From positions 1-42,231 of the forward strand of contig MFPR01000035.1 in the NCBI GenBank assembly GCA_001784175.1: a stretch of 42,231 nucleotides of DNA, given 5' to 3'. Positions within the stretch are counted from its first letter, which is position 1. Every line of letters starts with the position of its first letter. The notes under the pieces are model-generated. The model was not told the origin of the DNA and did no database searches. It saw only the letters and a list, made by a program, of their open reading frames with translations. Made by a program: the position numbers and the translations under genes. Positions 8,429-40,412 of the stretch are shown here, piece by piece. This DNA is from Candidatus Lindowbacteria bacterium RIFCSPLOWO2_12_FULL_62_27. Its GTDB lineage: Bacteria > Lindowbacteria > 2-12-FULL-62-27.

Positions 8429-8444
8429 GGCATTTGCGGCGCTT

Positions 8445-9077: not shown

Positions 9078-9132
9078 GATATTCCAATACGTGGAGGCGG
9101 CGTGGAGTGTGACAGGTTCCGGCTATTTTGGA

Positions 9133-22387: not shown

Positions 22388-24109
22388 TCACGTTGCCCGT
22401 TCACCTCTTTTTTTCCTCACCGTTTCGTTCAAATCGTGTAGGCGCTTCCCACTCTTCGTTTGCCAGTAGAGCGGCCCCGCCACCCCATGCTCGTCTGTCT
22501 TAAGCCCATGTTTCATTAAAAGCCTTTTCGCAAGCTCGGAAATTGAATAATCCTTCCCCTCGTATCTGAGGCGATTGGACTTGGAAACGATATTTGCCTG
22601 CTCTTGTTCGAATTTCTTCTTGTGGAAGAAATATAGTGGCTCGCCGTCGAAAATAAGCCCCAGTTCCACGAGTTCGCTTAACGTGACTACTCTGCCGCGC
22701 CCAGAGATTAATGGTATCGCGAAGTCTTCAATATGCTCGGCTTGAATGACCTCCTCAATAACCTTGAAAGTTTCTCTGTGAGCTTTTAAAACCGCCTTGG
22801 CAAGAGCAATAAATTTTCCGTCAGGTGCGGTGGAGGGATTTGCGAGGGCTGAGTCTGCAGTCGTCGAACGAAATTTCTCTCTCAACTCAAGAAGCGTTCT
22901 ATTGTAACTATCGGAATCGGGAGTATTTACTTTGAACCTGTCCCATCCACGACATACCCGCCCCCCCAATATCTCCTTCGCCGCGGATGAAGGAGCCTCA
23001 AAAACATGTTCATTGACTTTTATCCCACCGTCCACAACTTCGACCTCCTTTTCGACATCTCCTCTCTTGTAGATAAGGCGGTCGCCCACACGAAGCAATT
23101 TGGCGTCAATTAAATCAATGATGGAAACCAGAGATGTACCATGGGCTTCAACACTACTTTTCGGTGCGTCCTCACCGTCTACTCTGATTTGAGTAAGCAG
23201 GTTCAGAGGCGATATTTTATATTGCTTCTTATAATGCTCCTCCTTGCGCATAATTTCCTCCACCCATTTGCTTTCAGCGGGAGATATAGCAATCCTCCCG
23301 AATCCGGCATCACTTGGCGACGAAGCGAGATTACGAAGAAACTCTTGGATGATTTCACTTCCTTGGGACGAGAGAGACGGGTGCATGGCACAGGGCTTAA
23401 GCAGCTCATCTACGAGTTGTTGATAACTGAACGTTATGAAATCAGGCGACATGGCCCGGCGCCCTTGGGATTCTTTTCCTTCGGCATCGGGGCTCAAAAA
23501 TAGGAGCGCCCGGTACAATTTGTCTGCCCGACTACATTCGGGTTCGTCGAACAGACGTCCATCTCGGGAATCTTTGTGCTTATCCTCCAAGACATATTCT
23601 GCGTACTTGATTGTCTGATCTTTGGACTCTTTAGCTTTCACCTTGTTTTCACAAATGAAAAGTAGCCTTGAATGCTCGTTGTTCATTTCCATTTCTGCGG
23701 CGATGCAAACGTCGAAGCTCAGTTTGTTATTTCGCGTGTTTGAGAGATGCACAGTCAATTCACTCTGTTGTTCGGTACTTTGAGAGTCTGGCCACACCCG
23801 GCATCGGATAAGTTTCGCCTCGACGATGTATTCCAAGGGGGGAAGATGGATCCGCGCGCGCTTCTGTATGTCATCTCCATCATCCAATGACATGGCAATA
23901 AGCAACTGCCGAAAAGGGAAATCGCCAAGTTTGTGGCTGCCTTGGGGATTTAACAACCATGCGAGAAATGCAGAATGCCAGCGTTCCAAGTGTGTTGTGC
24001 CGAGGATCGAAAGAAATCCCGTAGACTTTAGATTATTCTCGATTGAGAGAAATGCCGGGTCGACCAAGAGGTCGCAGAGCTGTTTGATGTTTCTGATTTC
24101 TTCGTCCAT
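22388..24109 (-). CDS. PD-(D/E)XK nuclease with two C-terminal RAMA (DUF4357)-like domains
   Basis: ERWHSAFLAWLLNPQGSHKLGD, FDV, ICENKVKAKESKDQ..Y; repeats IIDLIDAKLLRVGDRL..F.APSSAA..GWDRF and LSELVELGLIFDGEPL..YSISELA..GPLYW. Confidence 0.8.
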   Translation of the reverse strand: MDEEIRNIKQLCDLLVDPAFLSIENNLKSTGFLSILGTTHLERWHSAFLAWLLNPQGSHKLGDFPFRQLLIAMSLDDGDDIQKRARIHLPPLEYIVEAKLIRCRVWPDSQSTEQQSELTVHLSNTRNNKLSFDVCIAAEMEMNNEHSRLLFICENKVKAKESKDQTIKYAEYVLEDKHKDSRDGRLFDEPECSRADKLYRALLFLSPDAEGKESQGRRAMSPDFITFSYQQLVDELLKPCAMHPSLSSQGSEIIQEFLRNLASSPSDAGFGRIAISPAESKWVEEIMRKEEHYKKQYKISPLNLLTQIRVDGEDAPKSSVEAHGTSLVSIIDLIDAKLLRVGDRLIYKRGDVEKEVEVVDGGIKVNEHVFEAPSSAAKEILGGRVCRGWDRFKVNTPDSDSYNRTLLELREKFRSTTADSALANPSTAPDGKFIALAKAVLKAHRETFKVIEEVIQAEHIEDFAIPLISGRGRVVTLSELVELGLIFDGEPLYFFHKKKFEQEQANIVSKSNRLRYEGKDYSISELAKRLLMKHGLKTDEHGVAGPLYWQTKSGKRLHDLNETVRKKRGERAT

Positions 24110-24184: not shown

Positions 24185-24694
24185 TTATAAGGGGGATGAT
24201 ATCCGTTCCCGCAGTATAGCCATCGCCCGGAGAAGATCGTCGGGTCGTTCTCTCGTGTTCACCTCAATCCATCTGTCCAGGAGTCCGTGTTCTGTCAGCC
24301 ATGCCTTCTCGGCTGCAATGGGCGCATCGTCCAGCCAGAAGAAATCTCCAAACAACGCCTCCGTCTTGAGGGTCACAAACCTCGTCGGGCGTATTTTCGA
24401 AAGCATCCCGAGTACGTCATCGGCGCCGTACGGACGGATAAGATCCACAACCGCTGAGGCAATCCCTTGGCAATGCGTGGTCAGCCAGTAGCATTCAAAG
24501 TTGGTGAGCGCAAACTCGAGAAACTCCCGAACGTGTTTCGCCCGAACGACCTCCGCCGAATGGGTGTCGCATTTGCCCAACAAAACGCCGTCCACGTCCA
24601 GAAACAGGTTCCATCGCCGAGGCTCCGGTTTCACGCCGGATAATATGTTTTGACAGTCAGAGTCGCTATCCGTCATTGGTTTCCTCTCCATCAC
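24185..24694 (-). CDS. HAD-superfamily hydrolase
   Basis: LFLDVDGVL, YWLTTH, KT, FFWLDD. Confidence 0.8.
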   Translation of the reverse strand: MMERKPMTDSDSDCQNILSGVKPEPRRWNLFLDVDGVLLGKCDTHSAEVVRAKHVREFLEFALTNFECYWLTTHCQGIASAVVDLIRPYGADDVLGMLSKIRPTRFVTLKTEALFGDFFWLDDAPIAAEKAWLTEHGLLDRWIEVNTRERPDDLLRAMAILRERISSPL

Positions 24695-26170: not shown

Positions 26171-27557
26171 GAGAAATTGTCAAATGTTGTGGATCGCATG
26201 ATCAAGCGGCGATCCTTTCTTGCTCCTGAAATTGAACTCCATCTATGAAACGAATACCGTCCCGAACGAGTGCAACGAGTTCGGGTGCGTGAACTTTGGA
26301 CCAGCGTTTCTGCGCCGACTCCAACAACTTGAAGGCCATCATCAGCCCGGCGGTCCGGGATCCGGCGCCTTTCGTCACGCGCGTGCGGAGTTTGACGGTG
26401 GCGAAGGCCGACTCGATGGGATTGGTCGTCCGCAGATGTTTCCAGTGCGCGGCCGGGAAATCGAAATGCACGGCCAGGGCCTTACGATCCTTGAGCAGAC
26501 ACTCGGTGGCCTTGGGATATTTCGCCTGATACTCGGCCTCGAAGCGATTTGTTTCCTTGCTGAAAGTTTCCCGATCCGGCGCGTTCATAATTTCATGCAA
26601 CAAACGCTTGGCTTGGGGCTGGAGACGTTTTGGAAGTTTGTCCAGGACGTTGGCGATTTTATGTACCCAGCAGCGGCTTTCTTTGGTCTGCGGCCAAACA
26701 TTGCGGACCGCGGCCCAGAAGCCGAGCGCGCCGTCGCCGACGGCCAAGACCGGTGCTTTCATGCGGCGGCGTTTCAAATCCCGCAACACGCTTGCCCAAG
26801 ACTCCGTTGATTCGCGATAGCCGTCTTCGATTGCGACCACTTCCTTGTCTCCTTCCCTCGTCACACCGACAATCACCAGAAGACAGAGATTTTCTTCTTC
26901 GAGGCGGATCGACAGATGAACGCCGTCAGCCCAGAGATAGACATAATCTTTCTGCGACAAATCGCGCCGGCGGAATGCTTCATATTCCGCCTCCCAGACT
27001 TTTTTCAGCCGCGTGATCGTGGTCGCCGACAGTCCTTTCGCCTCATCGCCGAACAGGGCGCTCAGCGCCTCTCCGAAAGCTCCGGTTGACAGACCTTTCA
27101 AATACAACAGCGGCAAGACCTCCGTGACGTTTGCCGATTTCCGCAGATACGGCGGTAACACCACGCTTCGGAATCGTTTTCCTTCTCGCCCGTCGACGAC
27201 ACGCGGCGCCTCAATCACCACTTCACCCGACCCCACCAGCACTTTCCGCGGGCGGCCATATCCGTTGCGGGTCACCAGCGCGCGGTCTTTTGCGTCGCGA
27301 TATTCCTTCAGTCGCTGGACGTATTCATCCGTCTCGGCCTCCAACGCCTCGACGATCATCCGGCGAGCACCGCACCGGGCCAGATCATCCAAACTGACTT
27401 GCACCTCTGGCGTTTCTTTCTTCCACGTTGTAACTTTGAACATCGGCGTTCCTCCTTCGCCCGGTTCGAGCCGGGTTTTTGATTTGACACTCCGGTCAAA
27501 TCGGAAGGATACGCCGCTTTTTTGTATCACTCAATCCACAACTTTCGGTTATATCTC
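26171..27557 (-). mobile_element. IS256-family insertion sequence, 1387 bp
   Basis: Imperfect TIRs gagaaattgtcaaatgttgtggat and gagatataaccgaaagttgtggat; 9-bp TSD gaatttatt at 26162-26170 and 27558-27566. Confidence 0.95.
26202..27443 (-). CDS. IS256-family DDE transposase
   Basis: RNGY, LYLKGLST, YLWADGV, GYRESTESW, VGDGALGFW, RCWVHK, RTTNPIES; AAGGAGG RBS before MFKVT. Confidence 0.96.
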   Translation of the reverse strand: MFKVTTWKKETPEVQVSLDDLARCGARRMIVEALEAETDEYVQRLKEYRDAKDRALVTRNGYGRPRKVLVGSGEVVIEAPRVVDGREGKRFRSVVLPPYLRKSANVTEVLPLLYLKGLSTGAFGEALSALFGDEAKGLSATTITRLKKVWEAEYEAFRRRDLSQKDYVYLWADGVHLSIRLEEENLCLLVIVGVTREGDKEVVAIEDGYRESTESWASVLRDLKRRRMKAPVLAVGDGALGFWAAVRNVWPQTKESRCWVHKIANVLDKLPKRLQPQAKRLLHEIMNAPDRETFSKETNRFEAEYQAKYPKATECLLKDRKALAVHFDFPAAHWKHLRTTNPIESAFATVKLRTRVTKGAGSRTAGLMMAFKLLESAQKRWSKVHAPELVALVRDGIRFIDGVQFQEQERIAA

Positions 27558-28086
27558 GAATTTATTCCGTCTAAGATAATCAACAAGAACAAGTGCACGT
27601 TCCTCGAAACGATTGGCCGCAACAATCAATATCGGTCCTCTTAAGTGGTTTCTTTCGATTCTACGTTTTATGGTTTTTTCCTCTATCTGTGCGTCTTGGG
27701 AAATTTTCGCCATTTTATAGGCATTTTTGAAAAGGTGGAACCAGCTTATCAACCCCGTTTGCTTGGCATGCTCATCTGCAATTTCAAGTATTCTCGAAGC
27801 GTTCCAACGACTTGTTATAAACGAGGCATATTCCTGTAACTGTGCAACGACCTCTCTCCTCTGCTCTGGATTCTGAACCAATTTACATTCTACGATCAAC
27901 AGGGTACCTGTATCGTCAAGAAAGAGAAGATCAAGCGATCCAATCCCCGCCAAGGGTACTTGCCTGCCGATGGGTACCGCGATCTGCGCCTTGGGGTTTA
28001 TGTCAGCTATGGGAATGACCGTGGGAGTTGATTCGATTAATTGTTCAAACTGCTCTTCTTCCCCACTCGTAAAAGGTTTTTCCTTT

Positions 28087-28497
28087 TCATGGAGTGTTGT
28101 CATATCCGCCTCCTGTCGATAACCCCTCGATTTTCACAGCCCAATCCACTGATCCCACCGTTCCGGACATTCCCCGGATGGCTTCCACCAGTGCATGGAT
28201 GTATATCATGGACGGTTCGTCAGGCTCTACACCGAAATGCTGCCAGCGCCGCTGTTCGAAAAACAGCGCGGTGCGAAGGTCGGTCAGAGAGTCGGGCAGG
28301 CTACCGTCATCCAGATATGCCCCCAGAATCCGGTTCGCGATTTCTCCGCACTTTTCGCACGATTCCCAATGGTGGAAACCTCGAAAGGAGTACGCGAATG
28401 GCTCTATCTCCTCCCAGTGCGCCGTCGGGCCGGGGACGTCAGCCGACGTAAGTTCTGCATCGAAGATGTGCTCCCACCTTTTTTTATCCCAGTCCAT
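28087..28497 (-). CDS. Hypothetical protein; its 3' end is the target of the 6.7-kb insertion
   Basis: AAGGAG RBS; FAYSFRGF..LTDLRTALFFEQRRWQHFG; the C-terminus is duplicated at 21440-21476. Confidence 0.75.
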   Translation of the reverse strand: MDWDKKRWEHIFDAELTSADVPGPTAHWEEIEPFAYSFRGFHHWESCEKCGEIANRILGAYLDDGSLPDSLTDLRTALFFEQRRWQHFGVEPDEPSMIYIHALVEAIRGMSGTVGSVDWAVKIEGLSTGGGYDNTP

Positions 28498-28511
28498 TCG
28501 CCTCTCCTTTC

Positions 28512-29135
28512 TCAATGCTTTTCTTTTCGCTCGTAGTTCGCAATTCCCCTCTTCGCTATTCGAATCGACAATTCAACAAACGTGCATTTGTCCGCTCTGA
28601 AGATTGCGTTCAGGCCGATTTCGGACTCGCGCGTTTTGGCGGCGGCGAAATACTGTTCATCTTCGAATGCGTACAGCAGGGTGGACAGTGCCTCCTGATT
28701 GCGTTTGTGGATATCGATCATGACGCTATATTCGCCACGGATGCAGAATACCGCGCCTGCGTATTCGCTCATGTCGACCACGATGCGGATCAGTTCCGAT
28801 ACGCTGTCCGGCTGGATGGCCTTCTGGGCGCATGTCCTTTTCACGCCAGCGGCTGATGCTGAGATCAACTCGAACAGGCGGTACCAGTACATGCCGTCGT
28901 CATAGAGGTGGTGGGTCAGAAAATACTCGCGGTTTTTTTGTACAAGTTTGAGACCATCCCGGGACAATGACAACAGCTCGTCGAAAAGTCTCCCGTCAGG
29001 CCGTTCGACGGTACTCCATGGCGAATCCTCCTTCCGCGAAAGGTACGCCTTTTCAAGAGCCTGCAATCTGGCCCGGACATCGGCGAAATCCTTTTCCGCG
29101 GGGATCGGGATCAGAGGCATGAGGGAGTCATCCAT
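28512..29135 (-). CDS. Hypothetical helical protein
   Basis: 207 aa, overlaps the upstream gene, operonic. Confidence 0.7.
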   Translation of the reverse strand: MDDSLMPLIPIPAEKDFADVRARLQALEKAYLSRKEDSPWSTVERPDGRLFDELLSLSRDGLKLVQKNREYFLTHHLYDDGMYWYRLFELISASAAGVKRTCAQKAIQPDSVSELIRIVVDMSEYAGAVFCIRGEYSVMIDIHKRNQEALSTLLYAFEDEQYFAAAKTRESEIGLNAIFRADKCTFVELSIRIAKRGIANYERKEKH

Positions 29136-30075
29136 TCATCGTCGCCAGCCCGATGATCTCGTCGGCGGTGCGGAGGCGGGCGTCGGGGGAGTCGATGTCC
29201 CTGTCGAGGAGCGGGTCGATGTCGGGGATTTCAGCTTCGTCGTCAAAATCGAGAATGGCTTGTTCCAAGCCACCGAGATTCGTGGGGTCGGAGGGATCCG
29301 GTTTCTCACCCTGCCGCGCGTAACCCAGCCGCACGAACGCCTTCAAGTGCTCGATCAGCCGCAGGCGGGCCGGTCGATCCATGCCGATGGGCGGCAAGGG
29401 CTCGACTTTGATGCGTCCATCGTGCCAGACCGTCATGAAAACGCCGGATGCGGCGGCGACGTTAACCGCGTCGGGAATGGCGATTTGGACATCCAATCCG
29501 GCCGCTTTCAAGTTGCGATACAGTTGTTTGAGCCATTCGTGATCCAGATCCTCCTCGCGACTGACCAGAGCGTCGAAGTCAGGCTGATCGAACAGGGAGC
29601 GATTGAAGCGAGCGACACGGCCGTCCTTCAGCACGGCTTCGTACCACGCTCGCTCCGGCGTTTCGACAGCCACAATCCGCGTTGCCCGATTCTTGATCCA
29701 CGGCTCGTAGATGACAAACGCGATCATGAACTCGCGGATCCGCAGCGATTCGGCCACTGGATCCCTTGACGGAAGCCCTCCGTAGGGGAAGCGAAAAAAT
29801 AGATGGCCCCAGTCGTCGGCGCGGATGTAATAAAAGGTCCCCGCCCCGTCGCCGCTCCGCCCAAATCCAGTCAGGAGATACCCGTTCGGCGCCCTGCGCA
29901 GAAACTCCTCCGGATCGCCTGCTCGAAAGCGCGGATTCTCGCGCGCGGCGGCAGTTCCATAGATCGCCGTTCCGGGCGCAAGACGCACAAGGTCGAAGTC
30001 GTCGACCAACTGCCACGGGAATGCCCACGCCAGCTCATCGGCGAAGAGACGCTCAAGCTCGGAGGTGTCAGCCAT
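29128..30075 (-). CDS. Hypothetical protein
   Basis: 315 aa, GAGG RBS, acidic C-terminus, operonic. Confidence 0.7.
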   Translation of the reverse strand: MADTSELERLFADELAWAFPWQLVDDFDLVRLAPGTAIYGTAAARENPRFRAGDPEEFLRRAPNGYLLTGFGRSGDGAGTFYYIRADDWGHLFFRFPYGGLPSRDPVAESLRIREFMIAFVIYEPWIKNRATRIVAVETPERAWYEAVLKDGRVARFNRSLFDQPDFDALVSREEDLDHEWLKQLYRNLKAAGLDVQIAIPDAVNVAAASGVFMTVWHDGRIKVEPLPPIGMDRPARLRLIEHLKAFVRLGYARQGEKPDPSDPTNLGGLEQAILDFDDEAEIPDIDPLLDRDIDSPDARLRTADEIIGLATMNG

Positions 30076-30098: not shown

Positions 30099-30764
30099 TC
30101 ATCGTGCCGTGGTTCTCGCAACCCGGCGGCGGCCATGATTGGACTCGACACCGGCGGCTCCATTGTTTCTCTGCGTGTTTGAACGGCCGGCATTCGATAT
30201 TTCACGTGAGACATGACGAAGTTCCATTTTTCCGCCGCAACTACGGTGGAAAAAGCAAACGGTGTTGAATGTCTGTCTCAAAATCTCGGATGCCTTCTCC
30301 AGGCGCGGATATAAAGAGTGAATGGCACCCAAGGCGATTTCATTACCGCTTCCGATGGCCGCAAAATTATCAAAAACGCAAATATCCCGGCTTGCCGCGA
30401 CTTCAAACATTCGCCGCGATGTCGCGACCATGAACGACGCGTCGCTGAGTTTCGAAATTTCATTCTCCTTTGCCGAACCGAGCGAATACCGCTCTTTGAC
30501 AAAGGCATAGACGTGCTGAAAAAAATCGGTCACATCGTGTTCGTTATCGAAAGCGCTCTCATACATATCCCTTTTCCTATCCGCGAAGTAACGCAGGACA
30601 TTTTGAAACAGGACGTTGCCTGAGCAACCTATTAACGCGTTTTTGAAACGCGTGATTTTTGTTACATCTGACCTGTCCGTACGGACAATCCACCCCCAAG
30701 CGGTCAGGCTGTCCGCCATCATCCACATCTCGCCGTTCTTTTTTACTGCCGCAATGACTGTCAT
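30099..30764 (-). CDS. Ntn-hydrolase proteasome-like threonine protease (HslV/BPH-like)
   Basis: Starts M-T-VIAAVKKNGEMWMMADS (Thr1 nucleophile, ADS), KI, IGCSG, AAIGSGNEIALGA. Confidence 0.85.
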   Translation of the reverse strand: MTVIAAVKKNGEMWMMADSLTAWGWIVRTDRSDVTKITRFKNALIGCSGNVLFQNVLRYFADRKRDMYESAFDNEHDVTDFFQHVYAFVKERYSLGSAKENEISKLSDASFMVATSRRMFEVAASRDICVFDNFAAIGSGNEIALGAIHSLYPRLEKASEILRQTFNTVCFFHRSCGGKMELRHVSREISNAGRSNTQRNNGAAGVESNHGRRRVARTTAR

Positions 30765-30789
30765 ACGAACCGCCCTGTGTTGGTCACTC

Positions 30790-31098
30790 TCAATCCTCCA
30801 CCCGCTTGATCTCGCCGGGTGTGTACTCCCGCTGGCGGCGGATGCGGTAGATGCCGGGTGTGATCGTGATGGCCGCATGCTCTTCGTGGACTAGCGACGT
30901 GTCGCCGGTGACTTCGGCGTAGATATCGCCGTCGGGCGCGTCGAAGAGGGCGACCGCCGATTCGTCGCTGAAGCGATGCCGGTGTCCGGTCGCCTCGCCG
31001 TAGGCTACTGTCAGGTCGGTTCGCGCTTTGAGTTTGTCCGGCATCGGGGATCCGGTTTTTATGATTAAAACGTCGCCCTGTCGGTACTGCTCGCTCAT
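30790..31098 (-). CDS. Small His-rich 'RQGDV' protein, habitual partner of DUF6745-like proteins
   Basis: YRQGDVLI, AYGEATGHRH, HEEH, PGIYRIRRQREY; GGAGG RBS. Confidence 0.85.
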   Translation of the reverse strand: MSEQYRQGDVLIIKTGSPMPDKLKARTDLTVAYGEATGHRHRFSDESAVALFDAPDGDIYAEVTGDTSLVHEEHAAITITPGIYRIRRQREYTPGEIKRVED

Positions 31099-31143
31099 CG
31101 TTTTCCTCCGTACAAATCGGATGTGAGGCCGCGATGCGGCCGG

Positions 31144-33942
31144 TCAAGTCTCCAATACCGGGACGTACTCTTCAGGTTTGAATCCAAATGTCCATGCGGC
31201 GGCGTGGGTGCAGGTTTTCATCTCACCTCCCGCATCCTCCCAGAGTGATTCCTCGCGATCATCCCATTTTCCGCCCGCCGCGCGTCTCGCATCGCCCCGC
31301 CCGGGCGGGACGCGAAGGAACACATCGGCCGCAAGACCCAGACGCACTTTCGCCGGATCGATCACATGCAAAATCACCATGGGCTCGTCGTCCTGCAAAT
31401 AGATACGATAGAGTTTTCGCGGATTGCCCGCCGTATCCCGGTCTTCGTCCAGAACCGCCGGGGACGCCTCGCGAATGAACGAAGCCAGACCCTTGCGCGC
31501 GATCATCAGCCGCCGTACTTCAGCGTTCTTCTCGTTCAGGATTGTCTCGGCCGAGAGAGATTGCGGATCGTTGATCACGACGGGAGGCACAACCACCCCC
31601 CGGTATCGATAAATCTCAAGTCCGTCGCTCAATACCGCGGCCGGTCCGCTTTCTGAATGCAGACGATTCCCGGTCTGATCCACATCAATCTGTTTTGGGC
31701 GCGTCACGATGAAAACGGTCTTCTCCAATGCAAGAAATGTCCATCCTCCGCTTGCGTAGAACTGCTTCATAAAAGCCGCCTCTTTGCTGATTCGCTCAAG
31801 CTCGGCCTGCAAGGCGGCATCGCAGGGATCGGTTGATTGAAAATGCCGGGCGGCCAGGACCGAAAATATGATGTGATTGGACATCACGCGTTTGAGATCC
31901 CAGTAGCAGAAGAATTTTTGGGCGGATGTCAAATTCGGCGTGTCAGCGGTGGTAACCGGAACGTTGCTGTTAAAATGCATTGTGTTCATAATTTTGCCGA
32001 GCGCTTCGTTAACGGATTTCAGAAAAAGATCGCTGTCGTGAACCTGGCTGCAGATTCGTCTCAACCCGCCGGCCAGCATCGGATCAATGAAGATCGCGTC
32101 GTTTAATGCGTGGAGGGATTGCACGCAGGGATGCCTGCTCAACGCGTCCGTGACATGCCGGCCCAACGCCGTGAGGTACATTTGGGACGATTCTCTGCCA
32201 AATGTCGAATAGAGCGCCCGGGCCGGCGCTCCCGAGAATCCGATTTGGGCAAGAAGGTTGTAATTCTCCATTTTCACTTGATCGGACGACGGATGATCTC
32301 GTCCGCAAGCGCCCTCGCGCGTGTGCGACTGCTGGAAGTCCCGGGCGACTTCTGCGGCGATGAGGGGCGCGGCCGGGTGCGAGCAATAGACGATGTCGGC
32401 AGGCAGGCGTTTGCCGTGGATTTCGTAAAAATCGGAGATGGCGTCGAACAGCGCCACTTCATCCACGGCGGCTTGGGAGAGCAGGTCCGTCCAGTCCGAC
32501 ACAACGGAATTGACCATCCCGGTGTCCTCTTCAAACCACAATCGTGCCGGAGATGCGGCGGCACGCGGTTCGGATTGAACGGGACGACGAATCGTTCCAT
32601 CGTGCGATTGAACGGGCACGTTATTCGGGATTTCGTGCCGGCATAGGACGAAACATTTCCGGAAATATTCGGGGACATAAGCGTTGACCAGATTAAAAAA
32701 CGGGCGACGCAGTTCGAGCGAACGAACTTCGAAGATGATTTCAGAATAATATTTCTCCCCGAGCCTTGCCAATTCTTCTTCAAATGCGATTTTTTCCGGC
32801 GCGGATGAAAACTCGATGATGCCCGCGCCATTTACTGTCTGAATATTGCGGAGCAGGGCATTCTCCTGTTTGTCCGACAACGAAACAACCTGCAATATGC
32901 CGTTCTTGCCCTGAAGGCCGGAACAAATGGACGGTGCAAGCGCCCGGCGAACAGCCCCGAGGGAATCAGTCCCATCGGACCGCACAAAGGCGTCCAGAAT
33001 GGTCAGGGTGTCAACAATGGGAATGCGTTCCGACAACAGATCTTGAAACAGCGCGTGTATCTGGTCGAGCCCGAACTTATTGACCGCCATACCTACCATC
33101 AGCTCGTCATCTGCTTTTGCCTTGTCCAAGAGCAACTGTGTCTGGTCCATTGAGAAAAGGGACGCTGCGTGTCGAGCCGCGAATTCAAACAAATGGGAGG
33201 ACATTACCACCGCCGGCTCCGACAGATAATAACCGGATTTCTCGGCGAGTTCCCGCTGGTCGGGCTTGATCCAAATGGCCGGAGCATGAAACAGCCGCTC
33301 GACATACGGAATCCCCTCGATCTCATGCCCTCCCCCGTCGGTTTTCACGGCCAGTACTCTCTCCGGTTCAACGGTGCCGGATTCGATCTGCCTGCCCTTC
33401 AGGAGAAGGGTATATTCCTTTGGCCGAAGTTTCAGGTCATCCCGGATACGGACGGACGGCAGGGTCACACCGAATTCATTGGCGAACCGGGTTCGGACGT
33501 TGCTCACTGCATCAAGGAATCCGTCGGGCCCCGATTGTTCACGATCTACAAGGGGAATCAGATGGTAGGCGATATTGACTTCGAGCTGTTCGACGGATTT
33601 GGGGGTGATCTCATTATAGAAATAGGTCCGCGCCGGCCGATCGATTCGATAGATGAACGCCAGCACCTCGGCCACTGGCTGATAATATTCGGATGGTATC
33701 TCCTCATCAACTTTGACCTTTCTGCATAGAAGGTGCGCGAGGCCCGCATATTCATAATTCGGCAGACCGATTCGCTCTGCGAGCCGAATGACATGCTTGG
33801 CGGTCCTGCCTGACCACTTCCCAATGACACGCGGAGTTTTATCCTGTTCGGGTCGATATGAAATCGCGACCGCCGGACCAGTCCCGCCAAAAATGAGAAC
33901 GTCGGAATCGTTCTTTGGTTGAATTCGAACGTCCATCGTCAC
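31144..33942 (-). CDS. Fusion protein: FlhB C-terminal domain, FlhA (FHIPEP) cytoplasmic domain and DUF6745-like domain
   Basis: AVAISY..PRVIGK..LAHLL..DEEIPSEYYQPVAEVLAFIY (FlhB-C); LEVNIAYHLIPLVD..FGVTLPSVRIRDDLKL..LLSERIPIVDTLTILD (FlhA-C); RLHSESGPA..DG..Y.GVVVP..NAEVRR..FLRVPP..AAAWTFG (DUF6745-like). Confidence 0.85.
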   Translation of the reverse strand: MTMDVRIQPKNDSDVLIFGGTGPAVAISYRPEQDKTPRVIGKWSGRTAKHVIRLAERIGLPNYEYAGLAHLLCRKVKVDEEIPSEYYQPVAEVLAFIYRIDRPARTYFYNEITPKSVEQLEVNIAYHLIPLVDREQSGPDGFLDAVSNVRTRFANEFGVTLPSVRIRDDLKLRPKEYTLLLKGRQIESGTVEPERVLAVKTDGGGHEIEGIPYVERLFHAPAIWIKPDQRELAEKSGYYLSEPAVVMSSHLFEFAARHAASLFSMDQTQLLLDKAKADDELMVGMAVNKFGLDQIHALFQDLLSERIPIVDTLTILDAFVRSDGTDSLGAVRRALAPSICSGLQGKNGILQVVSLSDKQENALLRNIQTVNGAGIIEFSSAPEKIAFEEELARLGEKYYSEIIFEVRSLELRRPFFNLVNAYVPEYFRKCFVLCRHEIPNNVPVQSHDGTIRRPVQSEPRAAASPARLWFEEDTGMVNSVVSDWTDLLSQAAVDEVALFDAISDFYEIHGKRLPADIVYCSHPAAPLIAAEVARDFQQSHTREGACGRDHPSSDQVKMENYNLLAQIGFSGAPARALYSTFGRESSQMYLTALGRHVTDALSRHPCVQSLHALNDAIFIDPMLAGGLRRICSQVHDSDLFLKSVNEALGKIMNTMHFNSNVPVTTADTPNLTSAQKFFCYWDLKRVMSNHIIFSVLAARHFQSTDPCDAALQAELERISKEAAFMKQFYASGGWTFLALEKTVFIVTRPKQIDVDQTGNRLHSESGPAAVLSDGLEIYRYRGVVVPPVVINDPQSLSAETILNEKNAEVRRLMIARKGLASFIREASPAVLDEDRDTAGNPRKLYRIYLQDDEPMVILHVIDPAKVRLGLAADVFLRVPPGRGDARRAAGGKWDDREESLWEDAGGEMKTCTHAAAWTFGFKPEEYVPVLET

Positions 33943-34060
33943 ACCAGTTCCCCTTTCCGCTGGGGATCAGATCGATCAGTGCTGGAAACCCATCCCCAGG
34001 ACGTTAGGCCGGCCGCCATCATCCACATCTGATTGTTCTTATTCAGAGCGGCTATAACGG

Positions 34061-36625
34061 TCACTTCGAACCCCCATCAAAATCTTTTCGATACATCTTT
34101 TCGGTCACGATTCGGTGCCCTGCCGACAACGAAAGCCACACATCGACTTCAGATTCCGACAGGACCGCGATGCCGTCATTCTCCGGCGATAGAATCTCAT
34201 AAATGGCCCGGCGGGTTGTTGGTGGAGCGATTATAACCGGCCGCCGGCCGACAGATTTTGTGGCGGCGATGCTCTCGGCGAAAAACGACTTTGCTTGCTC
34301 CGCAGCCTCCGGCGAACTCATCTCCGCCTGCGTTGCGACACCGGCTTCAATTGCATGGAGAACTCCATCTGTGCCGGCCAGGCGGTCGCAGATGATGGGC
34401 GCCAACACGTGCCGCACCCGCTCGACCATCTCCGAGAGGGGCGCGTTTGAATCGAGCGATAGGAGTGTGTCCAATATAAGTGTGATGTCCTTGATGGGCA
34501 CATGTTCACGCACCAATTCCCGCAAAACGGATGTGACTTTCCTGGCTCCGATGCCTTTTTCGACCTCCTCCGCGAGCCTGGCGCACTTGTCTTTGACGAT
34601 ATCAAGAAGGCTTTCGGTGTGCTCTCGCGAAACGAGCAACCAGGCATTTTGGCGCAACGCGTGCTCCAAGTGTTTTGCGATGACTGTAGGAGGGTCGTAG
34701 ACGGTACAACCGGCTTGGAACGCCCTGACAGCATCATCTGGATCGATCCAAATCCCAGACTGCCCGCTGACCGGCTCCCGCACCACGTCACCTCGAAACT
34801 GCGTTGTCGCGGGGCCGATCGCCATCAGCCGATCTGGCCGTAACTCACCCCGGCCTCGCCGCATGCCTCTGATCAGAATCTCGTAATAACGGGGCGGTAG
34901 GGAGTGAGATACTCTTGTTTCAACTTGCGGAAGGATCAGGCCAAACTCGTTCGCTAAACGAAATCGAATTTGGGCGGACACATCGGCGAAGAACATAGGC
35001 TCAAGTTCATATTCGGTCAGAATATGGACATCTGTCTGAGCAACACTTTCCTCAATTTCCGTCCCTCTCTCACGCCAAATCTTGGGATCAGGCCGCCCGT
35101 GAGCCCTGTCGAAGGCGAGCGCATCCCGATAAACGTCATTTAAGGGCCCACGAAGTGCCGGTTGAACCATCTGGTCTTCGATACAATTATTCCACAACGC
35201 TGTCATCAGGATTTCGTCCGATTTGACGATTTTACGATATTTTCGGGCCCGTTCGATGAGTTTGTCCGCTTTGGCACCGGTCCATTTGGCCTTGCAGACA
35301 GGTTGGACGACACGCAGAGGCTCCATTCGTTCGAGTATGCTGCCGGCTTCGGATGCCTGAGGACACAACTCATAATCGACAGCGACGACTCGCCGGTTCG
35401 AAGTAATCAAGAACTTGAAAGATAATTTCCTGACCTCAGCGGCACTGTCCTCATCAAGCGAATCCGCCTCCAGTTCGGTTTCCTGGGCGCCTGACCCGGC
35501 CGACTCGGGAACACATCTAACGCGACCCTCCTCGAGTTTGACGTTGACAACTGTCGAAGACTTTACAGGCAGAAGGTCGTACATCACAGGTTCGAGTTCT
35601 TTGGCGAGGAGTTGCTGGAGCCCACGCGCGCCTATTTGTGTCTTCACAGCAGTGTGGACGAAGTGGCTGAATACCGCCGGCTCGATGTTCAGCTGCAAGC
35701 CATCTTTTGCAAACTCCGCCGCCGCATGTTTCGATGCCTCCGACTGGACGATGGCAAGCAACGTCTGTTCATCGAGCGGGTCAAACGTGACGACGCGCCG
35801 GAACCGTGCGATCAATTCCGGCATAAACCCGAATTTCTTAAAATGCTCGATGTTATCGATCTCCTCTTCGGTAAAAGCTGCGGCAATCTGTTCGGAGTCG
35901 GATTTGTCCGCAGCACCTAAAAATCCGATGTTCGGCCCGCCATGAATGGAGCGTACGGCAGTCTTGAATCCAGAGAACGCCCCACATGCGATAAATGAAA
36001 TGTGGGATGTCGACATTTGAAAGGACGGATCGTCGTGCCCTTCAGGTACATCGACGCGAGCGCCGTCGAGCATCTTTAGAAGCTCCCGCTGGACACCGTA
36101 TCCGCTGACATCCTGATATTCGCTGCGTTTCCCGGCAGTCTTGTCGAACTCATCCAAGCAGACGACACCACACTCGGCCTTGAAGCGGTTCCCATCAGCC
36201 ACGGTTATCAGGCTCTTCAGAATCTTGATTACATCCATACCGTGATAGCCTGTCTGTGAATAATTGGTCATATCAGCGATGAACACCGGGACTTTGAGAA
36301 TTTTAACAAACAGCAGATCCACCAGATGGGTCTTCCCGCTGCCCGTGGGTCCCATCATGAGGTAATTGAGTTTCGGCGGGCCGACGACCGCATGTCCAGC
36401 ATCTTGATTGGCGGCCGCATATTGCTTGATGCGCTTGATATGCCGGTGCGCCATGAGACACAAAGCCCGGCGGGCCCGCACCTGCCCTCGATACCCCAGT
36501 GACTCCAGTTTATCGAACAATTCTTTCGGTGAAGGCACGACCAACTTCCTCGCCCATTCCCTGAAGGTTTCCCTGTCCTCGTCTTCGTCAGCCACGAAAG
36601 ATTTCACCCCTTTCCGAATAACCAA
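34061..36625 (-). CDS. Fusion protein: ClpX-type AAA+ ATPase (no Zn-binding domain) and FlhA (FHIPEP) cytoplasmic domain
   Basis: GQ..A, GPTGSGKT, TGYHG, LDEFDK, DVSGYGVQRELLKMLDG, FIACGAFSG, IGF, GFMPELIARF, GARGL; C-terminus LANEFGLILPQV..REPVSG..IWI..GCTVYDPPTVIAKHL..VLRELVREHVPIKDITLILDTL. Exact start uncertain. Confidence 0.88.
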   Translation of the reverse strand: MVIRKGVKSFVADEDEDRETFREWARKLVVPSPKELFDKLESLGYRGQVRARRALCLMAHRHIKRIKQYAAANQDAGHAVVGPPKLNYLMMGPTGSGKTHLVDLLFVKILKVPVFIADMTNYSQTGYHGMDVIKILKSLITVADGNRFKAECGVVCLDEFDKTAGKRSEYQDVSGYGVQRELLKMLDGARVDVPEGHDDPSFQMSTSHISFIACGAFSGFKTAVRSIHGGPNIGFLGAADKSDSEQIAAAFTEEEIDNIEHFKKFGFMPELIARFRRVVTFDPLDEQTLLAIVQSEASKHAAAEFAKDGLQLNIEPAVFSHFVHTAVKTQIGARGLQQLLAKELEPVMYDLLPVKSSTVVNVKLEEGRVRCVPESAGSGAQETELEADSLDEDSAAEVRKLSFKFLITSNRRVVAVDYELCPQASEAGSILERMEPLRVVQPVCKAKWTGAKADKLIERARKYRKIVKSDEILMTALWNNCIEDQMVQPALRGPLNDVYRDALAFDRAHGRPDPKIWRERGTEIEESVAQTDVHILTEYELEPMFFADVSAQIRFRLANEFGLILPQVETRVSHSLPPRYYEILIRGMRRGRGELRPDRLMAIGPATTQFRGDVVREPVSGQSGIWIDPDDAVRAFQAGCTVYDPPTVIAKHLEHALRQNAWLLVSREHTESLLDIVKDKCARLAEEVEKGIGARKVTSVLRELVREHVPIKDITLILDTLLSLDSNAPLSEMVERVRHVLAPIICDRLAGTDGVLHAIEAGVATQAEMSSPEAAEQAKSFFAESIAATKSVGRRPVIIAPPTTRRAIYEILSPENDGIAVLSESEVDVWLSLSAGHRIVTEKMYRKDFDGGSK

Positions 36626-36743
36626 TGTGCATCGCGCAGGCCCATCGGTTCCACCACACCTGATACAAATGCGGTTTTTTTTCGGATTTCTGTTTTTTGA
36701 AGAAAATTTATTGATATGGCTGGGGACGGTATGGAGCGGCGGG

Positions 36744-39230
36744 TTACCCCTGGTTGAACACGGCTTCTCTCACTGGCTCGTCTATGCTCTCGAACCGGGA
36801 TGAACTCAATATTTCGGCGACTGCGCTCCTCGGTTTCGGATATCGCGGCGATGCGCCGAACGGCGATATTCGAATCACGTCCTTTGGTGGCGGCTCAAGC
36901 CATACAACCCAGTCATCAGCGAGTTTCCTTTGCGACATCAATCCGGCAGCCTCATCGAACAAGGCACGGTAAATCCTGGCGCGCCGGGCATCTTTCATCG
37001 CTTCGTATGCCAGCGACAGGCCACGGTGGGGATGAGCGTTGGAAGGATCGTCGGCGAGCGCGCGGTGGAAGCATTTAGCGGCATCGTGGTTCTCTCCCGC
37101 GCGAAGGTGGACTCCGCCGAGCAACATCCAGACATAGCTTGCGAATGATGAGCGAATTCCACCTCTCTTGCCCCGGCTCTTTTCAACATCCGATCGTGTC
37201 AGAAGCGGCCAGCGCTCGAAGACCGGCCGCATGGGCCGGGGTGACCTGGCGATTTCGGCGAGAACCTGATCAAGGCGGATTCTGGCATCGGCATCCCGTC
37301 CACGGAAAATCGCGATCTCCGCCAAGTACAGCCACGTGCGGACTTCATCGACCTTGACGTCCAGTGCACGTTGCGCGGCGCGCTCGGCCTGATCATACCT
37401 GCCCAGCAAGATGCAGAGCCGGACGATCCGGCGGATGTTGTGGACATCCGACGGATTGACCTTGCATCCGATATCCGCCCATTTAACAGCCTGTTCGTAC
37501 AGCCCCCGGTTGCGGAACGAATCCGATACCCATCCAATGGTAAATGAATTGCTCGGGTCGATCCGATAGGCCTTCATGAGGACCTTGTCGGCGCGACCGT
37601 TGTCGCCGACGTCACGCAAGACACGCGCAAGACGTTGAAGGGTGCGGACATTGCGGGGGTCGAGCCGGTGCGCCTTTTCCATCCATTCAAGTGCTTTGGT
37701 GTATTTTTTCATGCCTCGATAAACATAGGCGATCTGCCTGACCGCCCACTGATTTTTTGGGATAATCTGATGGCACTTCATGAACCACTGGATCGATTCA
37801 TCCCAGGCGCGCATATCGCGGCAAATATATCCCATCTGCGCTATTGTGCTCGCGTTGTCGGGGTCGATTTCGAGTGCGCGCTTAAGCCACTCCTTGGCCC
37901 GGGTGAAATCGTTTCTTTCACGCTCAAGGAACGACATTTCATTGAGATTGCCGACGTCACGGGGGTCAAGCAGATACGCCCTTTGGAGCCAACGAACGGC
38001 TTCGTCGAACCGGCCGAGTTTGCGGTTGACCTCGCCAACCTTTGCGTAACCGACAGGATCGGCCGGCTGGAGGGCGATGGATTTTTCCAGGAAGCGGAGG
38101 GCGAGTTTTTCGTCCACTCGCCACATTTCGATCGCGGCGATACGGTAGACATACGGATCCTTGGACCTGAGATTGCCGAGCAACCGCGCTTCGCGCCGCG
38201 CCTCATCCAGCCGCCCGCTTCGCCGGAGGATTTTGACAAGAAGCAGTCTGGCGAACACGGCTGTCAGCCTGTCCTCGATACATTCGCGGACCATTTCCTC
38301 CATCTTGCGGTCGGGGTTCAAAGTACCTTGCAGAGTCGCCATGCCCCAAGCGACCTTCCATATTTTTTGTCTCGGAAATTTCTCCGCGAATAATTTGTAC
38401 TGACCGATGACCGACGGCATTCCGAGTTCCTGGCGACATCGAATGTCCATCCATATCGCCGGAAGATAGGTGGGATGCGATTTGAGAACCCGGTCCAGTA
38501 AGAAAAGCGCGTAATCACTGTCGTATGCGTCAAATTTCCTGGCGGCCAGCCGGAAATAATAATCGTCTTTCGCTTCTTTTGCACGAGGAGCCGACGGGTC
38601 CAGAGAAAGATACTGGCCGACGATCGCTGTCCGCGCCTTGCGCTCGCCAATTCCTGAAATCCGCGCCACGGCCGGCGCCGCCAATGACGAAAACCTTAGA
38701 AACTCGTCCAACCTGCGCTGATGAATTTCCGGATCGATCAGTGCGATGGGGGGGCCCATTCTGGTCGAATCGACATTCCCGGCGTCTATGGCAGATCCCC
38801 CGCGGTCCAGGTAAGCCGTAACCTGACGCATGGCTGATGCGTGAACCGTCCCGTGGAATCTGTGTTCCAAGGAGAGAAGCGTTTCCGTCAGCATCGGGAG
38901 TTCAGCCCAGCATTCGACAGCCATCGGGATGTCAAGATCATTCTCTGCCGGGGGGATGCGAATATCACCGGGCGCAAGTTTATCCAGCCGGATTGTCACT
39001 GGGACGAGCCGGAAGGCGGGACCATCCGCCGAGCCATCTGCGCACACGGCGTGCGTCACGACAAAACTCAAGAGGTCCCGGCCGGACTTGACCGACCAAA
39101 ACTGTCCGGGCCGTATTGCGTCCGGTTCTGTTTCGGTCTTGGCCATCCGCCTCAACGTGTTTTTCGTGGTCATGGTGTTATCACTTCCATTGAGCGCGGC
39201 GCCGTTCAGACGGTACCGGCTGTTCTCCAT
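36744..39230 (-). CDS. Multi-TPR protein with an uncharacterised N-terminal domain
   Basis: Many 34-aa repeats (e.g. AKVGEVNRKLGRFDEAVRWLQRAYLLDP, AKEWLKRALEIDPDN); N-terminal IRPGQFWSV..VECWAELP domain. Confidence 0.88.
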   Translation of the reverse strand: MENSRYRLNGAALNGSDNTMTTKNTLRRMAKTETEPDAIRPGQFWSVKSGRDLLSFVVTHAVCADGSADGPAFRLVPVTIRLDKLAPGDIRIPPAENDLDIPMAVECWAELPMLTETLLSLEHRFHGTVHASAMRQVTAYLDRGGSAIDAGNVDSTRMGPPIALIDPEIHQRRLDEFLRFSSLAAPAVARISGIGERKARTAIVGQYLSLDPSAPRAKEAKDDYYFRLAARKFDAYDSDYALFLLDRVLKSHPTYLPAIWMDIRCRQELGMPSVIGQYKLFAEKFPRQKIWKVAWGMATLQGTLNPDRKMEEMVRECIEDRLTAVFARLLLVKILRRSGRLDEARREARLLGNLRSKDPYVYRIAAIEMWRVDEKLALRFLEKSIALQPADPVGYAKVGEVNRKLGRFDEAVRWLQRAYLLDPRDVGNLNEMSFLERERNDFTRAKEWLKRALEIDPDNASTIAQMGYICRDMRAWDESIQWFMKCHQIIPKNQWAVRQIAYVYRGMKKYTKALEWMEKAHRLDPRNVRTLQRLARVLRDVGDNGRADKVLMKAYRIDPSNSFTIGWVSDSFRNRGLYEQAVKWADIGCKVNPSDVHNIRRIVRLCILLGRYDQAERAAQRALDVKVDEVRTWLYLAEIAIFRGRDADARIRLDQVLAEIARSPRPMRPVFERWPLLTRSDVEKSRGKRGGIRSSFASYVWMLLGGVHLRAGENHDAAKCFHRALADDPSNAHPHRGLSLAYEAMKDARRARIYRALFDEAAGLMSQRKLADDWVVWLEPPPKDVIRISPFGASPRYPKPRSAVAEILSSSRFESIDEPVREAVFNQG

Positions 39231-39236
39231 CCATCA

Positions 39237-40412
39237 TTATGAATGTCCTTTTCCCGTAATATTCTGATACTCGTAGCAAATCCTGCAAAAATCACCGACC
39301 AGCAATTCCCGATACCTGTCATAGTATTGAGCGCCTCCACGCTCAATGCCGAGAACATTTCGAAGTTGTTCCATCGCGTTCCGGCGTTCCACGGTGGCTT
39401 GGGCATTCTGCAGACCCACGGTGATACCCAGACGCCGGGCAGACACCTTTTTCACACGCCCCGTCTTGGGATCGTGGTGCAAAGCCATAATCTCGATTTG
39501 TCGGGGCGTCAGGAAATTACCCGAGTGGACCAATCGTTCCAAGTATTCGACATGCCGCTTGTAGTCGACTGCGTCCTGAAGATCAAACGGATCCGCTTCA
39601 AGATCGAGCAAATTCACTTTTTTGGCCGGGTCGTCCGGATCCGGCCGTTCGGCCGGTACGAACGCCGGGTGGCGTTCGTCGAACAGACCCTTGATGATAT
39701 TGCAAAGTGTAGATGTACCAAGGCCGACATTCTTCCGCTCGTAGATATTGCCCGCAACGTCAAACGCTGCCTTGACGATTTCGGCGGCGTATCTCGGACG
39801 AAATTCCCGTATCCGGCTTGCTTGAAACCACGCATCCAGCCCCCGGACGAGGCAGGCACGCGCATTGGAATCCATGGGGACGAGCGGCATTCGGACTCTG
39901 GAGGCCAGAACATACATGCGGTCGGACGCTCCATGCAGGTCCACCGACCCGCTGACGGGGATCAGTTCCCCCTTGGAGGCGGCCATCTTGAAGGCTGTGG
40001 CAATCGGTTTATAGACCCTTTGATTCTTTCGATGAGAACCTTTCATGCAGCGCTCGGCCACCGTCTCCAGCGTCATCACGAACCGGCCCGCTCGGGTCTG
40101 CCCCCGACGCCGGTATTCAGGCGCGATTTTTCTGTTGCGGCCCTTGTAGCCCCTGTAAAGAACCTCCTGTGCGGCGTCAAGGACGTCCTCGTCGGTCGGA
40201 CCGTATACCTGAACATCATCTCTTTGAAACCGCCGCCAGATGCGTCTGACGGTCTCACGGTGCAATTGAACAAACCACGGAGTCGAAAAATCGGCGGCAT
40301 CCGCACTCTTAAAATACTCCTCCACCAATTCCTCGAACTGAGTGTTCGGTATCCGAGACCATCGATGTAGTCGTTGTGCTATTCGTTGGCCGCCTCCTGC
40401 CATCGTCTGCAT
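39237..40412 (-). CDS. Hypothetical protein, possibly a highly divergent sigma-like regulator
   Basis: DEDVLDAAQEV (region-2-like) and LTPRQIEIMAL..SARRLGIT..RRNAMEQLR (region-4-like); ends 6 nt before the TPR gene. Confidence 0.55.
   Translation of the reverse strand: MQTMAGGGQRIAQRLHRWSRIPNTQFEELVEEYFKSADAADFSTPWFVQLHRETVRRIWRRFQRDDVQVYGPTDEDVLDAAQEVLYRGYKGRNRKIAPEYRRRGQTRAGRFVMTLETVAERCMKGSHRKNQRVYKPIATAFKMAASKGELIPVSGSVDLHGASDRMYVLASRVRMPLVPMDSNARACLVRGLDAWFQASRIREFRPRYAAEIVKAAFDVAGNIYERKNVGLGTSTLCNIIKGLFDERHPAFVPAERPDPDDPAKKVNLLDLEADPFDLQDAVDYKRHVEYLERLVHSGNFLTPRQIEIMALHHDPKTGRVKKVSARRLGITVGLQNAQATVERRNAMEQLRNVLGIERGGAQYYDRYRELLVGDFCRICYEYQNITGKGHS

Follow-up and report, generated by a model that had tools for sequence, protein, structure and literature searches.

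Cytoplasmic domains of the flagellar export gate without membrane segments, joined to a ClpX-like ATPase and a phage-type DUF6745 protein, in a gene island of a Lindowbacteria genome

We analyzed a contig of the uncultured groundwater bacterium Candidatus Lindowbacteria bacterium RIFCSPLOWO2_12_FULL_62_27 and detected a cluster of ten genes in which the cytoplasmic domains of the flagellar export-gate proteins FlhA and FlhB (FlhA_C and FlhB_C) occur in two proteins predicted to be soluble, one built on a ClpX-like AAA+ ATPase and the other on a DUF6745 domain. The window is the whole 42-kb contig (C35; MFPR01000035.1, 42,231 nucleotides) of a 4.39-Mb genome that is 94% complete, and the phylum is represented in our genome collection by four genomes, all of one family. 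Textbooks assign both domains to a single machine, the type III export gate, and we know of no case in which they work away from the membrane. The ten genes, g1 to g10, all lie on the minus strand, from position 40412 down to 27549, with intergenic gaps of −17 to 118 bases. A preliminary description of this DNA had recognized a cluster of six genes. Their co-orientation and tight spacing stand, but four more co-oriented, tightly packed genes (27549-30075) extend the cluster downstream past g6, and the paralogs of g1-g2 and the insertion of g4-g5 described below speak against an indivisible unit. The cluster comprises the following features.

39237-40412, minus strand: g1, 391 amino acids (aa), a possible helix-turn-helix (HTH) or sigma-like regulator (weak), with no Pfam, NCBIfam or PADLOC family
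36744-39230, minus strand: g2, 828 aa, an array of tetratricopeptide repeats (TPR; TPR_2 at E 1.9e-32 and 19 other TPR-type families) behind an N-terminal domain of ~320 aa that has no family
34061-36625, minus strand: g3, 854 aa, a ClpX-like AAA+ ATPase and FlhA_C (550-828), from Pfam and NCBIfam, with a weak FlhB_C-like remnant (about 441-489) between them
33960-34064, minus strand: relic of the 5' end of a protease gene, its first 33-35 codons, with 63% amino-acid identity to g6 residues 1-35
31144-33942, minus strand: g4, 932 aa, FlhB_C, FlhA_C (116-446), a helical domain (about 470-730) and DUF6745 (709-889 plus a C-terminal tail)
30790-31098, minus strand: g5, 102 aa, the all-beta 'RQGDV' partner of DUF6745 (phrog_27831, E 2.8e-17)
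30099-30764, minus strand: g6, 221 aa, a BPH/HslV-type N-terminal-threonine peptidase whose C-terminus forms a basic tail of ~40 aa (PDB BPH 5ovs; phrog_1040)
29128-30075, minus strand: g7, 315 aa, without a family; the sister-genus cluster has a counterpart of its C-terminal half (residues 258-391 of L023:3-1175, 33% identity)
28512-29135, minus strand: g8, 207 aa, helical, no family (48% identity to L025:3439-4137 of the sister-genus cluster)
28087-28515, minus strand: g9, 142 aa, no match in any library
27549-28103, minus strand: g10, 184 aa, PD-(D/E)XK-like (..D..ECK..), matching PADLOC PDC-S11 at profile positions 23-136 of 358

Profile searches bear out both fusions that had been read from the sequence. 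In g3, Pfam places AAA_2 at residues 84-276 (E 1.4e-16), ClpB_D2-small at 284-352 and FHIPEP (PF00771) at 550-828 (E 1.7e-48), the last match covering profile positions 357-653 of 657 and leaving the N-terminal membrane region of FlhA (positions ~1-320) unmatched; the start of the gene is uncertain by 10 codons, and the database copy of the protein (P0152) has 844 aa. In g4, Bac_export_2 (PF01312) matches at 11-97 (E 1.1e-17) from profile position 249 of 335, so that the FlhB membrane domain is absent, and is followed by FHIPEP at 116-442 (E 2.5e-52), from profile position 329 to the profile end, with the PDB FlhA_C recovered at E 3.6e-34, and by DUF6745 (PF20530) at 709-889 (E 3.6e-28; 98.7 bits vs a cut-off of 27). 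The 19-residue hydropathy peaks at 1.78 in g3, within its AAA core, and at 1.21 in g4, as against 3.05 in the genome's own FlhA; both proteins are predicted to have no membrane segment, as had been proposed. The two soluble FlhA_C copies score 187 and 159 bits with the flagellar FlhA model vs 66 and 77 bits with the injectisome SctV model. Among 55 full-length FlhAs, 50 columns are conserved to 80% or more; g4 keeps 35 of these and g3 33, compared to 45 in the organism's own FlhA.

The FlhB_C-FlhA_C segment is the sole module common to g3 and g4. In g3 its FlhB_C part amounts to a weak match of residues 441-489 to a custom FlhB_C profile of 11 sequences (13.2 bits; single-sequence E 2.8e-6), located where an FlhB_C-FlhA_C unit would place it; a BLASTP comparison of g3 residues 401-547 with g4 residues 1-116 alone was not significant (E 1.3). 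In g4, the FlhB_C domain starts just before residues 19-22, which read GGTG where the genome's own FlhB has the NPTH autocleavage motif, and this FlhB_C is predicted to be non-cleavable. According to the available text of PMC8166844, the chaperone-binding dimple of Salmonella FlhA is formed by D456/F459/T490; the corresponding residues of g4 are E215/F218/S249, a conservative set.

The g3 ATPase retains the ATPase and pore motifs, namely Walker A (GPTGSGKT), Walker B (LDEFDK), pore-1 (GYHG) and sensor-2 (GARGL), as judged by alignment to the genome's own ClpX. At the IGF-loop position, its NIGF aligns with the MGF of that ClpX, and the glycine and phenylalanine of the loop (G234 and F235) are invariant in nine members of the same clade. 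The N-terminal C4 zinc-binding domain, present in the genome's own ClpX, is missing from g3, as is the RKH loop, and the zinc-binding domain is absent throughout the clade. The NCBIfam ClpX equivalog model gives g3 211.5 bits, under its cut-off of 359. By these features the g3 ATPase is a member of a ClpX-like clade and not a ClpX orthologue. Relatives with 40-47% identity to the ATPase part occur in 9 of 400 other genomes (loci L052-L060; G004, G027, G079, G120, G134, G174, G209, G289 and G327). Phage ClpX-like matches turned out to be ordinary ClpX at ~35% identity. No second case of the complete g3 architecture came from a whole-protein search of 40 other genomes, from a search of 400 with the ATPase part for a fusion, or from the other entries of the word-indexed protein search.

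Among solved structures, g6 is closest to BPH 5ovs (E 1.4e-12), aligned from Thr1 with the ADxLT motif (ADsLT), the lysine (TK) and GSG in place. This match and that to phrog_1040, 'peptidase HslV family' (E 9.5e-15), outweigh the score with Pfam Proteasome of 21.2 bits, which is below the gathering cut-off of 22.4. The identity of the protease proposed earlier is upheld but its start is not: the gene most likely begins at 30764 (MTVIAAV..., where removal of the methionine leaves Thr1) and not at 30878. The protein may be a BPH in the strict sense or a member of a group akin to it, such as AAH, CPH, PPH and RPC, which are named in the available parts of PMC8665760. The genome also has an ordinary clpP-clpX pair on contig C20 and another proteasome-like gene. 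ClpP rings, the docking sites of IGF loops, are heptameric. So are the rings of BPH, according to the available parts of PMC5777263 and PMC8665760. For g3, docking on g6, on ClpP or on both is therefore conceivable.

A record of how the cluster was assembled is kept between g3 and g4. The relic of the protease gene begins with a GTG start that overlaps the g3 stop codon (GTGA); its translation reads VTVIAALNKNNQMWMMAAGL..., with the aspartate of MMADSL lost, and the likeness of its DNA to the start of g6 reaches ~15 bases upstream of both starts. On sequence grounds, this relic reveals that the gene for the ClpX-like-FlhA_C protein must once have directly preceded the BPH-like gene and been translationally coupled to it, as in clpP-clpX or hslVU, and that the g4-g5 cassette must have been inserted between them later, duplicating their junction.

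What the insertion would have brought in is a protein pair that is largely carried by phages. A predicted model of g4 residues 470-932 (pLDDT 82.2, pTM 0.78) comprises the helical domain and a beta-rich DUF6745 domain, and its sole clear structural match is the DUF6745 protein of Microcystis phage Ma-LMM01 (E 6e-12). Foldseek found no PDB match for this region at E <= 0.001, and the best VIA match (Z 5.0, root-mean-square deviation 3.9, 91 residues) falls in the chance range, so that no fold is named. For g5, the protein described earlier is real but its gene model had to be replaced: the true open reading frame (ORF) is 30790-31098, and the overlapping 128-aa ORF at 30761-31147 lies in another frame. 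An alignment of g5 shows the invariant motifs RQGD, GE.TGH.H, HEEH and Q.EY. Its predicted model (pLDDT 81) has no Foldseek match, and the best VIA match (Z 4.5, root-mean-square deviation 2.8, 54 residues aligned) is again in the chance range and names no fold. The predicted complex of g5 with g4 residues 470-932 reaches an ipSAE of 0.65 vs 0.00 for the best control, a mark reached by 58 of 80 solved complexes and by 2 of 110 mismatched pairs, these counts being rough given that custom alignments were used. The runs agree in at least 83% of contacts, the partners have pLDDT of at least 80, and the interface falls on invariant residues of both proteins; g5 is thus predicted to clamp onto a conserved face of DUF6745. 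The genes also travel together. A g5 homolog adjoins the DUF6745 gene on five of six DUF6745 contigs of the genomes G001 and G002, the sixth (L028) having none, and g5 homologs occur in eleven phage records, with a DUF6745 gene adjacent in both records inspected (Ma-LMM01 gp175/gp174 and a siphovirus). With the DUF6745 alignment and a single narrow pattern, a scan of genome contigs recovered those of G001 and G002 only. A literature search for 'DUF6745' found nothing.

The architecture of g4 recurs. The ortholog P0002 (930 aa, 59% identity) has the same three Pfam families, and its first 110 residues are identical to the g4 copy of the sister genus, G001, whose gene spans two contig ends; because of this identity, the architecture is, on sequence comparison, known from two genera. 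The G001 ortholog (58% identity to g4) is preceded by a 585-aa protein that consists of an unfamiliar N-terminus, FlhB_C and a partial FlhA_C. After the ortholog come genes for a calcineurin-like phosphoesterase, a second DUF6745 protein, an ortholog of g5 (66% identity) and TPR proteins. The calcineurin-like phosphoesterases of the window (8445-10224) lie far from g4, unlike the one in G001, which is located between the g4 ortholog and the second DUF6745 gene. Homologs of g7, g8, g10 and a 169-aa gene of the window also belong to the G001 cluster (contigs C245 and C148; L025 and L023), and upstream of that cluster are an SNF2-type helicase and a PLD nuclease.

FlhA_C without a transmembrane (TM) region is not confined to these clusters. 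The window's genome has a third such gate-domain gene (C30:169136-172102; L035:9137-12103), with FlhA_C at 100-324, then FlhB_C at 342-414, a twin-arginine-like N-terminus (MDTSRRGFFQ) and an AAA (PF00004) gene directly after it, and G001 has further ones (L027, L026). An FHIPEP match was found in 190 of 401 genomes, among the matches listed and with two candidates scored per genome. In another listing, of 120 rows, fusions of FlhA_C to AAA account for three (P0014, P0166, and P0167, the last with ankyrin repeats). In the P0014 group, the AAA part is close to SpoVK/Vps4-type ATPases that bear other N-terminal domains, and the FlhA_C is 50-62% identical to FlhAs attributed to Planctomycetes-type bacteria. 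FlhA_C is fused to TPR in P0053 and P0117 and, from the word-indexed search, in P0165, some of these having HEAT repeats; P0008 combines two FlhA_C copies with HEAT, and FlhB_C+FlhA_C is found in P0018, P0040 and P0067. P0014, P0008, P0053, P0117, P0018, P0040 and P0067 are from the best 150 representatives of an exhaustive search. On a quick tree, soluble FlhA_C copies fall in at least five separate places, with the copies of g3, g4 and C30 on long branches of unsure placement; the grouping of g3 with P0165 joins long branches and is not trusted. We found no description of TM-less FlhA_C fusions in the literature, supplementary files, which might list such architectures, lying outside this search; the terms FlhA, flagell- and ClpX do not occur in an eLife 2020 article (PMC7159879).

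The two genes at the head of the cluster may be of a regulatory type. The assignment of g2 as a TPR protein is secure from its TPR_2 match. That of g1 as sigma-like could not be confirmed, since the protein has no Pfam or NCBIfam family and its Atlas leads to sigma-70 are weak (TM-scores of 0.19-0.34). A paralogous, collinear g1-g2 pair is located on another contig (C28:146869-150651; L036), without FlhA_C, ATPase or protease genes. There, the g2 paralog (C28:146869-149310, 814 aa) is full-length with 28.5% identity over 740 aa, and the adjoining g1 paralog has 438 aa (BLASTP E 4e-5). Because this pair stands without the remaining cluster genes, g1-g2 looks like a separable two-gene unit.

At the other end of the cluster, g7 has no Pfam, PHROG or PADLOC match, and g8 no usable Atlas match. 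The g10 protein, which also weakly matches Cas4, is 35% identical to residues 48-191 of a 425-aa protein of the G001 cluster and corresponds to the first third of both that protein and the PDC-S11 profile; it is probably a shortened gene. A Mutator transposase lies directly after it. Further features of the window are as follows.

709-2511, minus strand: large serine integrase, part of the island content
7770-10224, minus strand: three phosphatases in a run, one NIF and two calcineurin-like (the latter at 8445-10224), part of the island content
12002-14884, plus strand: GmrSD-type enzyme, part of the island content
22388-24109, minus strand: PDDEXK_4+RAMA nuclease, matching PADLOC PDC-S26 and PDC-S14
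24185-24694, minus strand: 169-aa gene, a possible further cluster member (41% identity, E 1.5e-37, to L023:1195-1725 of the sister genus)
26202-27530, minus strand: Mutator-family transposase (Transposase_mut, E 1.7e-61), inserted between g10 and further genes common to the sister cluster

The G001 homolog of the 169-aa gene is placed between the g10-like and g7-like genes of that genome. An AddAB-like pair is also present on the island, and no phage structural genes were seen on it. The GC content of the island is 0.554 vs 0.613 for the genome; at 22-26 kb of the window it is lower still, 0.48 vs 0.61. The window contains no Rfam families or tRNAs, and its promoter-like and terminator-like sites are at chance level. 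The Pfam scan of the 20 other large ORFs of the window detected no flagellar or type III secretion system (T3SS) families, in line with what had been stated before, and the genome's flagellar genes are distant from the cluster, with full-length FlhA and FlhB on contig C1. This genomic setting favours a role in conflict over one in flagellar regulation.

With domain combinations as unusual as these, the reality of the locus has to be considered before its function. If the fusions came from chimeric assembly, from a frameshift in the gene call or from a pseudogene in decay, the lack of a second example of the g3 architecture would be accounted for, and chimeras do occur in this material: a 559-aa protein (P0003) that might have passed for a short form of g4 comes from a short contig, L044, which is identical to the window to position 32298 (g4 residue 548) and continues with glyA/purH-like genes of another organism (L044:2048-2989), and which is itself probably chimeric. 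We nevertheless consider an artefact very improbable indeed. In a second assembly, L043 has 100% identity along 10,736 bases that include g1-g3 and 815 residues of g4. The stretch is present in seven public runs from four studies; when contigs of four of these runs were aligned to the region, no joint appeared and a single base differed, in one run. Contigs of two runs not flagged as possible sources bridge, without a difference, 34896-35673 (ClpX D2 into FlhA_C) and 33442-34817 (the end of g3 into g4). The long frames are open with catalytic motifs intact, and the g4 architecture recurs at 59% identity. These independent bridges dispose of the concern, raised in the preliminary description, that the fusions might be chimeras. 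The metagenome scan returned contigs of this organism only.

Taking these lines of evidence together, we think it close to an even prospect, without quite reaching one, that FlhB_C-FlhA_C serves as a portable module for docking and assembly inside a soluble conflict system centred on an AAA+ ATPase and a protease; that the locus is a horizontally acquired island encoding such a machine is part of this best explanation. Under this model, the FlhA_C domains of g3 and g4 would co-assemble and so bring the DUF6745-g5 unit to the unfoldase, from which clients may go on to g6 or the housekeeping ClpP. Docking of these clients would fall to the FlhA_C ring, much in the way that the flagellar gate docks chaperone-substrate complexes, DUF6745-g5 might be the sensing or effector end, g1-g2 (HTH-like and TPR) would be a separable regulatory pair, and the complex may act in conflict with phages or other mobile elements. 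A link between the two proteins through the shared module is suggested because FlhB_C-FlhA_C is all that g3 and g4 have in common and because the g4 ortholog of G001 again adjoins an FlhB_C-FlhA_C protein, one with a different N-terminus. Client docking would fit the conservative form of the dimple in g4. A conflict role is favoured by the low GC and the neighbours of the island, by the SNF2-type helicase and PLD nuclease next to the G001 cluster, by the PDC-S11 match of g10, and by DUF6745 and its partner being for the most part phage genes. The co-assembly role of FlhA_C put forward in the preliminary description is consistent with these observations and with the AAA+ and TPR associations elsewhere; its further suggestions of a TPR-triggered switch and of a decoy against flagellotropic phage are guesses. 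A more specific version, which we regard as unlikely, has a soluble hetero-oligomeric FlhA_C ring on a ClpX-like hexamer (six g3 and three g4, making the canonical nine) that docks clients in the manner of the gate and feeds a BPH-type chamber, with DUF6745-g5 as a phage-sensing or effector arm, so that a secretion platform would be rewired to degradation.

A number of observations weigh against a joint machine of this kind. An ATPase is six-fold and an FlhA_C ring nine-fold, a mismatch within one homo-oligomer. In g3, the dimple residues are E617/S620/K651, with two of three lost, and its FlhA_C is on a very long branch of the quick tree. Recurrence in other genomes, which holds for the g4 architecture, does not extend to the g3 fusion, known from one population only. 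The free-standing loci of the ClpX-like clade have no conserved neighbour, and none of the nine has an adjacent protease, g6-like or FlhA_C ORF. Genes for the ClpX-like ATPase and the BPH-like protease were not found in the sister genomes, and G001 keeps g4-g5 without either. PADLOC-DB 2.0.0 has no family match for g1-g9, the sole match within the ten genes being that of g10 to the candidate family PDC-S11 (E 3.4e-13). Finally, the relic places the arrival of g4-g5 after that of the ATPase-protease pair; taken with the G001 case, this means that either pair can exist alone.

Some of these same observations are what one would expect if the island simply held independent neighbouring modules, g1-g2, g3+g6, g4+g5 and g7-g10, with the FlhA_C domains of g3 and g4 serving unrelated purposes: g1-g2 is duplicated elsewhere without the rest, the relic marks an insertion into an older operon, DUF6745-g5 pairs stand alone in relatives and phages, and G001 is without the ATPase and the protease. 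We rate this explanation as doubtful, given that the rare TM-less FlhB_C-FlhA_C module appears in two adjacent genes here and again in G001, that the genes are co-oriented and separated by very short gaps or overlaps, and that FlhA_C is tied to AAA+ in three separate settings. Another reading keeps the gate domains in the flagellar world. The soluble FlhA_C and FlhB_C would bind the native gate or chaperone-substrate complexes and either titrate them or deliver them to the unfoldase and protease, thereby stopping flagellar assembly, clearing unexported subunits or blocking flagellum-dependent phage. The genome does possess the full-length targets, FlhA is present in all four genomes of the phylum, both soluble copies are of flagellar type by their model scores, g4 keeps the dimple in conservative form, and in the quick tree a soluble FlhA_C from G001 groups with the FlhA of the lineage itself (SH-aLRT 93). 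Yet the flagellar genes are distant from the cluster, which has genes for defence and mobility around it on an island of low GC; g4 is without the NPTH autocleavage that FlhB needs for substrate switching, and the dimple is lost in g3; the long branches of g3 and g4 are not those of recent copies of the host FlhA; and DUF6745-g5 has no known flagellar tie and occurs in phages of non-flagellated cyanobacteria. Regulation or sabotage of the flagellar gate therefore seems unlikely to us.

Compared to known systems, we class the locus with the AAA+ unfoldases that have a compartmental peptidase, here equipped with an adaptor that has no precedent. The gate itself (Salmonella FlhA_C, PDB 3A5I/6AI0; FlhB_C, 3B0Z) shares homology with the cluster proteins in FlhB_C and in all four FlhA_C subdomains (D1-D4), but the cluster proteins have no TM domain and no flagellar gene context, NPTH is lost, and FlhB_C precedes FlhA_C in one polypeptide that is fused to an unfoldase or to DUF6745. 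What the cluster shares with ClpXP and HslUV is a ClpX-family ATPase module with an IGF-type loop and an HslV-related N-terminal-threonine peptidase, their genes having once been translationally coupled; g3 differs by its missing zinc-binding domain and RKH loop and its score below the ClpX cut-off, and g6 is nearer to BPH than to HslV. Neither textbook pairing joins a ClpX-type ATPase to a proteasome-like peptidase. For BPH (PDB 5OVS/5OVU), the best solved relative of g6, the available parts of PMC5777263 and PMC8665760 report an unknown unfoldase partner and operons without an AAA gene, whereas here a g6-type gene once followed a ClpX-like ATPase gene. The Ma-LMM01 pair gp174/gp175 (DUF6745 and QGDV partner) has its counterpart in g4, which passes the Pfam cut-off, and the adjacent g5 gene, the difference being the FlhB_C-FlhA_C fused in front of the g4 domain. 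The other TM-less fusions (P0014, P0166, P0167; P0053, P0117, P0165) likewise join FlhA_C to AAA+ or TPR, but with an AAA family, PF00004 (SpoVK/Vps4-type), a domain order and lineages that differ from those seen here.

The presence of TM-less gate domains on an unfoldase and on a phage-type protein, with parallels in other phyla, suggests that the docking ring is a reusable module, and these soluble natural FlhA_C variants offer material for work on how the ring assembles and how clients dock. The former coupling of a ClpX-like and a BPH-like gene, marked by the relic, bears on the lack of a known BPH unfoldase in the available parts of the BPH papers cited above, and the locus links the widespread phage pair DUF6745/QGDV to a defined, testable set of partners. 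If the hetero-ring were real, the cluster would be a conflict machine of a new type and would give a BPH-type protease its first unfoldase partner; seen alongside the FlhA_C+AAA and TPR+FlhA_C fusions of other phyla, FlhA_C would then emerge as a general, portable ring-adaptor.

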